In this document: one piece after another, positions 34,401 to 35,975 of the stretch | Layout: every line of letters starts with the position of its first letter | Position numbering within the stretch: position 1 is the first letter of the stretch | NCBI GenBank assembly: GCA_021432655.1 | Contig: MU271209.1 | Coordinates: forward strand, 62,001 to 113,291 | Direction: 5' to 3' | Origin: Atractiella rhizophila | Taxonomy: Eukaryota | Length of the DNA: 51,291 bases | Notes under the pieces: generated by a model | What the model was told of the DNA's origin: nothing | What the model saw: the letters and a program-made list of their open reading frames with translations, nothing else | Databases searched by the model: none | Made by a program: the position numbers and the translations under genes

Positions 34401-35975
34401 NNNNNNNNNNNNNNNNNNNNNNNNNNNNNNNNNNNNNNNNNNNNNNNNNNNNNNNNNNNNNNNNNNNNNNNNNNNNNNNNNNNNNNNNNNNNNNNNNNNN
34501 NNNNNNNNNNNNNNNNNNNNNNNNNNNNNNNNNNNNNNNNNNNNNNNNNNNNNNNNNNNNNNNNNNNNNNNNNNNNNNNNNNNNNNNNNNNNNNNNNNNN
34601 NNNNNNNNNNNNNNNNNNNNNNNNNNNNNNNNNNNNNNNNNNNNNNNNNNNNNNNNNNNNNNNNNNNNNNNNNNNNNNNNNNNNNNNNNNNNNNNNNNNN
34701 NNNNNNNNNNNNNNNNGGAACTACCCTTACAGATTTCCTATTTCCTTGACCTTCCCTAAACCGAGAACCGTGTGGGCGTGCTGGAGAAAGCGGTCGAGTT
34801 GTCGGGGTCGTGGTGGCACTCTGGTCACTCATGTTCCTTGACGTCGTAGCCGAGGTTGCGATTCTCTTTTGAAGAACTGCTGAAGCTGGAGCAACAGGCA
34901 TAGCCACGATTTAGCAGTAGTCGTACCCGCCAATTCGTCAACCAAGCCCGCATGCACTTCGCTAACTACCGTTGTTCTGGAAATGTGGGTAGAAGAAGCG
35001 CAAGAGTTATACGAATGGCTCTAACTGCGTTGGAAAGAGCTCTTAGAGTTCCAAAAGCCAGACCATTTGAAGACCTTCACCAAACGGTCCGCACTGAAGA
35101 CCAGGAGGAGGCACGTAGAAGTCCCGAGCCTACCACCGGTGCTCTTGCTGTCGCAACCCCACTTCTGGTGAAAGAGACGTAAACTACAACTTCTTGAAAA
35201 GGTAAGGCTACAGGCGCGGTTTGGGTCGACCAACACGTTCGCTTAATCGTACACGTACCACTTATGTGTCTTCCTTTTGCTTGGAAGGCAATGCTGCATC
35301 GGTATGGCTAGTAGTCCGAGAGGTCCGAGGTGTGGTCGGTCGAACTCCCGCTGAAACAGACGTTCTTACCTTCTCAACGGCTATGACTTCCTGTTACAAG
35401 ATTGAAGCAATTGCTAAAGGTATGTCTTCGCATTGCCTGTTCCGAAGGCTGATTTTGTGCGCAGAAATGTACGGTGCTGATGGAGTCTCTTACTCGGAGG
35501 AGGCGGAGAAGCAGATTGAGAGCTATACTAACCAGGGGTTCTCTCACCTTCCCATCTGTATCGCTAAGACACATCTGTCTTTGAGCCACGATCCCAAGCT
35601 AAAGGGAAGACCAACAGGTACTTCTCTCCCCTACTCTCTTGCAGAACTCAATTAACATTTGTTTCAGGCTTCACCCTTCCCATCAGAGAGCGTAAGCCTC
35701 TTTACCATCTGTTAATCACTCTTGACGAGGTATCACAGTGAAAATTGCTGCAGGAGCTGGTTTTATATACCCTGTGAATAACTTCCTCCACTCCGCGATC
35801 CTAAACTGACTTCAAACGATAGCTTGTGGGAGAAATGCAAACTATGCCAGGTCTTTCGACTAGACCAGGGTTTTTCGGTAAGACCTAACTCTACTACAAT
35901 CTACAGTAACACTGACTCGCTGTGCCTGTAGATATGGAACTCCGTGAAGATGGAGAAATCATTGGTCTTTCTTAG
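31493..35975 (+). CDS. ADE3: Trifunctional C1-tetrahydrofolate synthase (Ade3/Mis1-type), interrupted by an N gap and two reversed segments
   Basis: [112 protein letters not shown], ends GEIIGLS*. Confidence 0.95.
33873..34173. other. Mirror-reversed (non-complemented) segment of the C1-THF synthase gene
   Basis: Reading the + strand backwards gives ..ctgtag|GT GAC AAC CAT GCT GTC ACT GCT GCT AAT AAT TTG.., then [36 protein letters not shown], with GT-AG introns. The left boundary is uncertain by a few nt. Confidence 0.93.
34174..34716. other. Assembly gap (543 N)
   Basis: Run of N. Confidence 1.
34717..35395. other. Second mirror-reversed (non-complemented) segment of the C1-THF synthase gene
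   Basis: Read backwards: [93 protein letters not shown], which joins in frame to the forward sequence DKIEAIAK at 35396. Confidence 0.95.

Follow-up and report, generated by a model that had tools for sequence, protein, structure and literature searches.

The only natural DNA feature commonly called 'mirror' symmetric is the mirror repeat, or H-DNA tract, in which the mirrored arm must have a forward arm beside it and which is typically a short homopurine-homopyrimidine stretch. Sequence is also reversed on purpose, and the Dfam paper describes such reversal as a means of making homology-free decoys and reports differences in k-mers between real and reversed sequence (PMC3531169). Two stretches of a public scaffold of Atractiella rhizophila, lying on either side of a run of N within the gene for C1-tetrahydrofolate synthase, read as this enzyme only when their letters are reversed without complementing. 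They are almost certainly a software artefact of assembly finishing, probably one in which gap-closing extensions were written backwards, and not the DNA of the organism. In contrast to mirror repeats, the two blocks are mixed-sequence coding DNA, have no forward copy in the stretch analysed here, and have a printed order that is contradicted by independent contigs. The Dfam decoys, as that paper presents them, share with these blocks the same string operation, which keeps composition and low-complexity sequence and loses homology, but they are an intended control kept apart from the data, whereas the present case would be an accident within a public scaffold and its annotation. The gap-closing errors treated in the DENTIST paper (PMC8848313) likewise lie at gap flanks, in consensus of lower accuracy and with homopolymer indels. 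In contrast to the case described here, its main text, from which the stem 'revers' is absent, concerns wrong or imprecise fill and not reversal. A pure reversal would also escape the usual alignment of a fill to a truth set. In our literature search no released assembly was found to have been described with gap flanks reversed in this way; such a description may still exist.

The DNA analysed here, referred to as the window, is a stretch of 51,291 nt (assembly GCA_021432655.1, contig MU271209.1, positions 62,001 to 113,291 of the forward strand), and all coordinates below are those of the window. Its single run of N, of 543 N, falls at 34174-34716, inside a gene for an ordinary C1-tetrahydrofolate synthase, with nothing unusual seen in the gene itself. 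A homologue search with the exon at 33661-33864 as query returned eukaryotic trifunctional C1-tetrahydrofolate synthases, with all 8000 of the 8000 scored candidates at E<=1e-10 and 120 listed. Among the matches listed, 73 of 120 are at least 860 aa long (median 939 aa), and the full-length homologues listed carry all three domains, PF00763, PF02882 and PF01268. This trifunctional eukaryotic enzyme we take to be of the ADE3/MIS1/MTHFD1 type. The formate-THF ligase domain (PF01268) is found in forward exons to the left and to the right of the gap: the exon at 33661-33864 matches it over profile positions 62-128 of 556 (E 4e-36) and the exon at 35467-35613 over positions 455-503 (E 4.3e-17). The N-terminal dehydrogenase/cyclohydrolase domains are present in the same gene, since PF00763 and PF02882, together with PF01268, are precomputed on its public protein record, P0004. 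The gene is thus like those of its homologues, and the record differs from them by two reversed blocks, the gap and two single-base indels. The layout is as follows, where P0042 is a full-length homologue of 945 aa and X1 to X4 are four public runs described below.

31493-33862, plus strand: forward exons that encode the dehydrogenase/cyclohydrolase domains and the first part of the formate-THF ligase domain (alignments of P0004, P0042 and PF01268)
33863-33874, plus strand: opening 12 bases of the intron that follows (GT...), in correct order, the last of the left contig proper (fit of X1 and X2 contigs)
33875-34173, no strand assigned: left reversed block, 299 nt, backwards without complementing (reversed-only tblastn, X1 and X2 overhangs)
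34093-34095, no strand assigned: run of 3 T closing the first hidden exon piece, with one T surplus (frame, homologues)
34174-34716, no strand assigned: remaining assembly gap, 543 N (N run)
34717-35395, no strand assigned: right reversed block, 679 nt (reversed-only tblastn, X1 to X4 overhangs)
34974-34979, no strand assigned: site of the lost base (frame, homologues)
35396-35975, plus strand: forward rest of the gene, comprising an exon end (to 35419), five further exons and the stop codon at 35973-35975 (P0042 residues 840-945, X3 and X4 splice joints)

Protein similarity across the gap appears in one reading only. With P0042 as tblastn query, the window as printed gave residues 17-447 (at 32243-33864, with residues 17-384 aligning to 32243-33622) and residues 840-945, and no match to the residues between 447 and 840. 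The preliminary description, which was made from the letters of this DNA and dealt with 34717-35395, had proposed a protein search of that segment reversed without complementing; this search, made as tblastn, matched P0042 residues 648-834 at E 6.6e-73, with 86 % identity over 86 residues, and all the formyl-THF synthetase motifs that had been listed for the plain reversal, including HWSHGGAG, were seen. When the segment was un-reversed in place, residues 648-905 appeared in the window, with one HSP (residues 766-905) crossing 35395/35396. The left flank, 33865-34173, likewise matched only when reversed, at residues 447-462 (E 0.002) and 466-496 (E 1.25e-14). The middle of the ligase domain is therefore colinear after un-reversal, with P0042 residues 447-496 on the left followed by 648-834 on the right. 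The two blocks together encode about 240 residues, and the part that is missing in the gap is about 150 residues (P0042 about 497-647) and introns. The 543 N are a plausible length for it, since 150 residues correspond to 450 nt, to which introns of about 50 nt must be added.

Read from 35395 downward, the right block begins with an intron tail of 11 nt and then gives three exons separated by the two GT-AG introns already noticed in the preliminary description, of 56 and 47 nt:

35384-35284, 35227-34955 and 34907-34717, read downward, no strand assigned: right-block exons (un-reversed sequence)
35283-35228 and 34954-34908 as printed, indices 113-168 and 442-488 when un-reversed, no strand assigned: right-block GT..AG introns (un-reversed sequence)

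The last of these exons runs on in frame at 35396. The exact join that had been claimed there is found as PIK|DKIEAIAK; the boundary divides the codon GAC between printed 34717 and printed 35396-35397. The claimed loss of a single nucleotide at GTC TTG is also real. One base is missing just after GTC (printed 34979-34977), where the sequence has GTC TTG... in place of the V-V/I-V-A of homologues. The reading frame changes by one base at this point: as it stands the site reads VLLPSIAS, and one base on it reads VAINRFT, which leads into the next exon.

The left block lies outside the coordinates given in the preliminary description, and is also reversed without complementing, hiding about 50 residues (...FSPIM). 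The last forward exon on this side finishes with ...NLHLTG at 33862. Read from 34173 downward, the block starts with a 42-nt intron tail which, with forward 33863-33874, makes a GT..AG intron of 54 nt, and the exons that follow are in phase after this intron:

34131-34092, 34037-33988 and 33936-33875, no strand assigned: left-block exon pieces, with two GT..AG introns between them (spliced translation)

The frame is broken once, by one T too many at 34093-34095, between ...NNLL and AAAID. Removing one T restores ...NNLLAAAID, and LAAAID follows AANNL in 50 of the 65 full-length homologues. Each block therefore needs one single-base indel, and the forward exons need none.

The error sits in the public record. 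Among the matches listed, P0004, 'hypothetical protein BT69DRAFT_1346577 [Atractiella rhizophila]', of 559 aa, is the only protein with 100 % identity to the query exon. It maps to 31493-33924 with 100 % identity in its first and last HSPs and has its stop at 33925-33927, and its C-terminal end is the translation of printed 33862-33924. From this end it follows that the gene caller passed the splice donor at 33862 and read 17 codons of reversed DNA to a stop. As P0004 ends in the reversed left block, the reversal predates the public annotation, and the gene is annotated as broken, as had been foreseen.

A sequence of events in assembly finishing would account for these observations. A scaffold gap of about 1.5 kb (299 + 543 + 679 = 1521 positions) would have lain inside the C1-tetrahydrofolate synthase gene. 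A gap-closing step would have added 299 nt to the contig end on the left and 679 nt to that on the right without joining the two extensions, so that 543 N were left between them, and both extension strings would have been entered in the scaffold in reverse letter order, uncomplemented. The gene caller would then have seen no exons in the reversed text, and the public model would stop at 559 aa. That the blocks are gap extensions is suggested by their position at the N run, by their lower accuracy and by the fact that what remains of the gap has a plausible size; they adjoin the run of N on both sides, with correct sequence directly outside them. Their accuracy points to a low-accuracy consensus, possibly from long reads, with which the single-base indel in each block, that of the left block being in a T run, is in agreement. 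Failure to turn a leftward walk would account for the right flank alone, and a more general error must be assumed: the left flank being reversed as well, the fault concerns extension strings generally. Strings that are reversed and not complemented are routine inside software, as in the BWA index described in PMC2705234, and as such a slip of this sort is easy to imagine.

The same artefact could have arisen from a later script, manual finishing or submission handling that reversed lower-quality or patched stretches adjacent to gaps, and the reversal of both flanks, which goes beyond what a direction-specific extension bug alone would produce, would be in keeping with such a step. We regard this as a slim possibility, given that each block extends precisely from the N run to sequence of contig quality, that the N count looks like a computed remainder rather than a fixed placeholder, and that the error was already there at gene calling.

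Independent sequence decides between an artefact and a real mirror order. Public runs were found with 35396-38395 as query, and four of them, X1 to X4, were placed on 33000-36600. All four are sets of assembled contigs rather than raw reads, and may not include the library from which the window was built. Overhangs at the junctions were compared by eye with the printed sequence reversed. The contigs of X3 and X4 are spliced transcripts with ten GT..AG joints, those in the forward rest of the gene lying at:

35417/35463, 35614/35665, 35691/35739, 35773/35823 and 35876/35931, plus strand: GT..AG joints of X3/X4 (spliced contigs)

At the right junction, contigs in all four runs fit from 35396 on, and their overhang before 35396 is the reversal of printed 34717-34746, in 30 of 30 letters for X4 and 29 of 30 for X1 to X3. 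At the left junction, X1 and X2, which come from one sample, have two contigs each that fit up to 33874 or 33875, with overhangs past these positions that are the reversal of the printed sequence from 34173 downward in 27-29 of 30-31 letters, and with a one-base length difference in the T run. For X3 and X4, no loose end is listed at the left junction. Overhangs of this kind place the limits of the blocks at 33874/33875 on the left and at 35395/35396 on the right. DNA-like and transcript contigs alike carry the un-reversed order, and since X3 and X4 are spliced, it is also transcribed. One contig each of X1 (record 5) and X2 (record 13) has a further 1257 and 1473 letters, respectively, to the left of 35396 that do not match the printed sequence; the contig with 1473 such letters is 2283 letters long. 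No piece of an X1 to X4 contig falls in the bins 33968-35298, which fits the reversal, but for contigs such a hole alone proves nothing. The mismatches of X1 to X3 (1 of 30 at the right junction and, for X1 and X2, 2-3 of 30 and one indel at the left) may come from other haplotypes or strains.

Variation was also seen outside the junctions. Over the forward exons at 33115-33858, X1 and X2 have two sets of contigs, one with 0 and the other with 5-11 other letters per 118-166 bases, and at the left junction they show three different 30-letter continuations. Two or more haplotypes or strains, some 4-7 % apart, appear to be present, and such variation near the left junction may be the reason why short-read assembly broke here. 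Separately, a contig of X3 skips 126 bases at 33532-33659 with 25 other letters between, which is most simply a small exon between two introns placed as a replacement, in a variant differing from the window.

That the organism itself carries these segments purely reversed has in its favour only the public record, which prints them so, and the annotation built on it. The chance of this is vanishingly small. The preliminary description had taken the printed order for an artefact, and the contigs bear this out, being un-reversed at the right junction in all four runs, two of them spliced transcripts, and at the left junction in two of the four. To our knowledge no biological mechanism reverses a strand without complementing it, and both blocks abut the N run. 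Nor could a mirror repeat or H-DNA tract be made out, there being no forward arm in the window: when the un-reversed flanks were compared with the printed sequence by blastn, no forward copy of either block was found at E<=1e-3.

The composition of the blocks is likewise that of reversed text. The k-mer differences described in the Dfam paper (PMC3531169) are the signal used by our log-odds of printed against reversed order, computed under a strand-symmetric order-4 Markov model that was trained on the rest of the window with the tested stretch left out. Outside 33800-35450, 982 windows of 300 nt had a mean of +10.5 (sd 6.1, minimum -8.9); 42 per 1000 windows were below zero and one of the 982 was below -7. 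Inside the two blocks the log-odds were -7.3 to -18.0, with the sign expected of reversed text, which also argues against a real mirror order. Markov orders 1-5 without leave-out separate the blocks as well, with orders 4-5 inflated by self-training. By the order-4 log-odds, no other reversed block of at least 300 nt is evident in the window. The stretch at 35601-35900 (-8.9), considered as a second reversed block, proved to be a false alarm, as spliced and DNA contigs lie there forward. It holds four short exons and their introns and illustrates the false-alarm tail at 300 nt.

An ordinary inversion, by which the blocks would be reverse complements of biological or assembly origin, or a decayed pseudogene, can be set aside altogether. 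Misassemblies often include inverted contig ends, but the flanks, searched alone as printed and on both strands, gave no tblastn match to P0042 at E<=10. When 34717-35395 was translated in its four readings, the printed strand and its reverse complement were stop-rich and held nothing familiar. Among stop-to-stop ORFs of at least 40 aa listed for the flanks, none of the 11 that are free of N matched any Pfam family at E<=1, and in the positive control for this search both of two forward exons matched PF01268. As such, the earlier statement that nothing recognisable is encoded here on either strand holds for both tblastn and Pfam. A pseudogene is contradicted by the un-reversed exons, which are intact save for one single-base indel per block. 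Chance or low-complexity resemblance has for it only the general caution that reversed low-complexity DNA can give spurious matches (PMC3531169), and it is dismissed by the E value of 6.6e-73 with 86 % identity over 86 residues, the canonical GT..AG introns, the exact in-frame join, and a control in which the entire window was reversed and 5 of 5 P0042 HSPs fell inside the two gap flanks, with none in the other 50 kb or so. Since reversal keeps composition and abolishes true homology and reading frames on both strands, BLAST, six-frame translation and Pfam are blind here; this invisibility of the exons had been predicted, and the printed flanks indeed lack any tblastn or Pfam match.

Gap-closing extensions written backwards may not be confined to this locus. 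That both flanks of the single inspected gap are affected suggests a rule rather than an accident. It is conceivable, at somewhat less than an even chance in our estimation, that the reversal is systematic, with every gap of this assembly that was extended and not closed being written backwards, and possibly also closed gaps, which have no N, and other assemblies made with that version of the program. In that case a large number of exons in public genomes would escape BLAST and gene callers, many of the genes called 'truncated' or 'missing' would be artefacts, and calls of gene loss and of pseudogenes near gaps would be unsafe. The log-odds of printed against reversed order offers a cheap, reference-free screen, with a false-alarm tail at windows of 300 nt. 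In practical terms, the public protein record has 559 of about 939 residues, and about 240 residues of exons are undetectable as printed by alignment, six-frame translation or domain search. For the biology of Atractiella rhizophila the reversal is without consequence, as its C1-tetrahydrofolate synthase gene is an ordinary one and is expressed, and the value of the finding lies in the quality control of databases.
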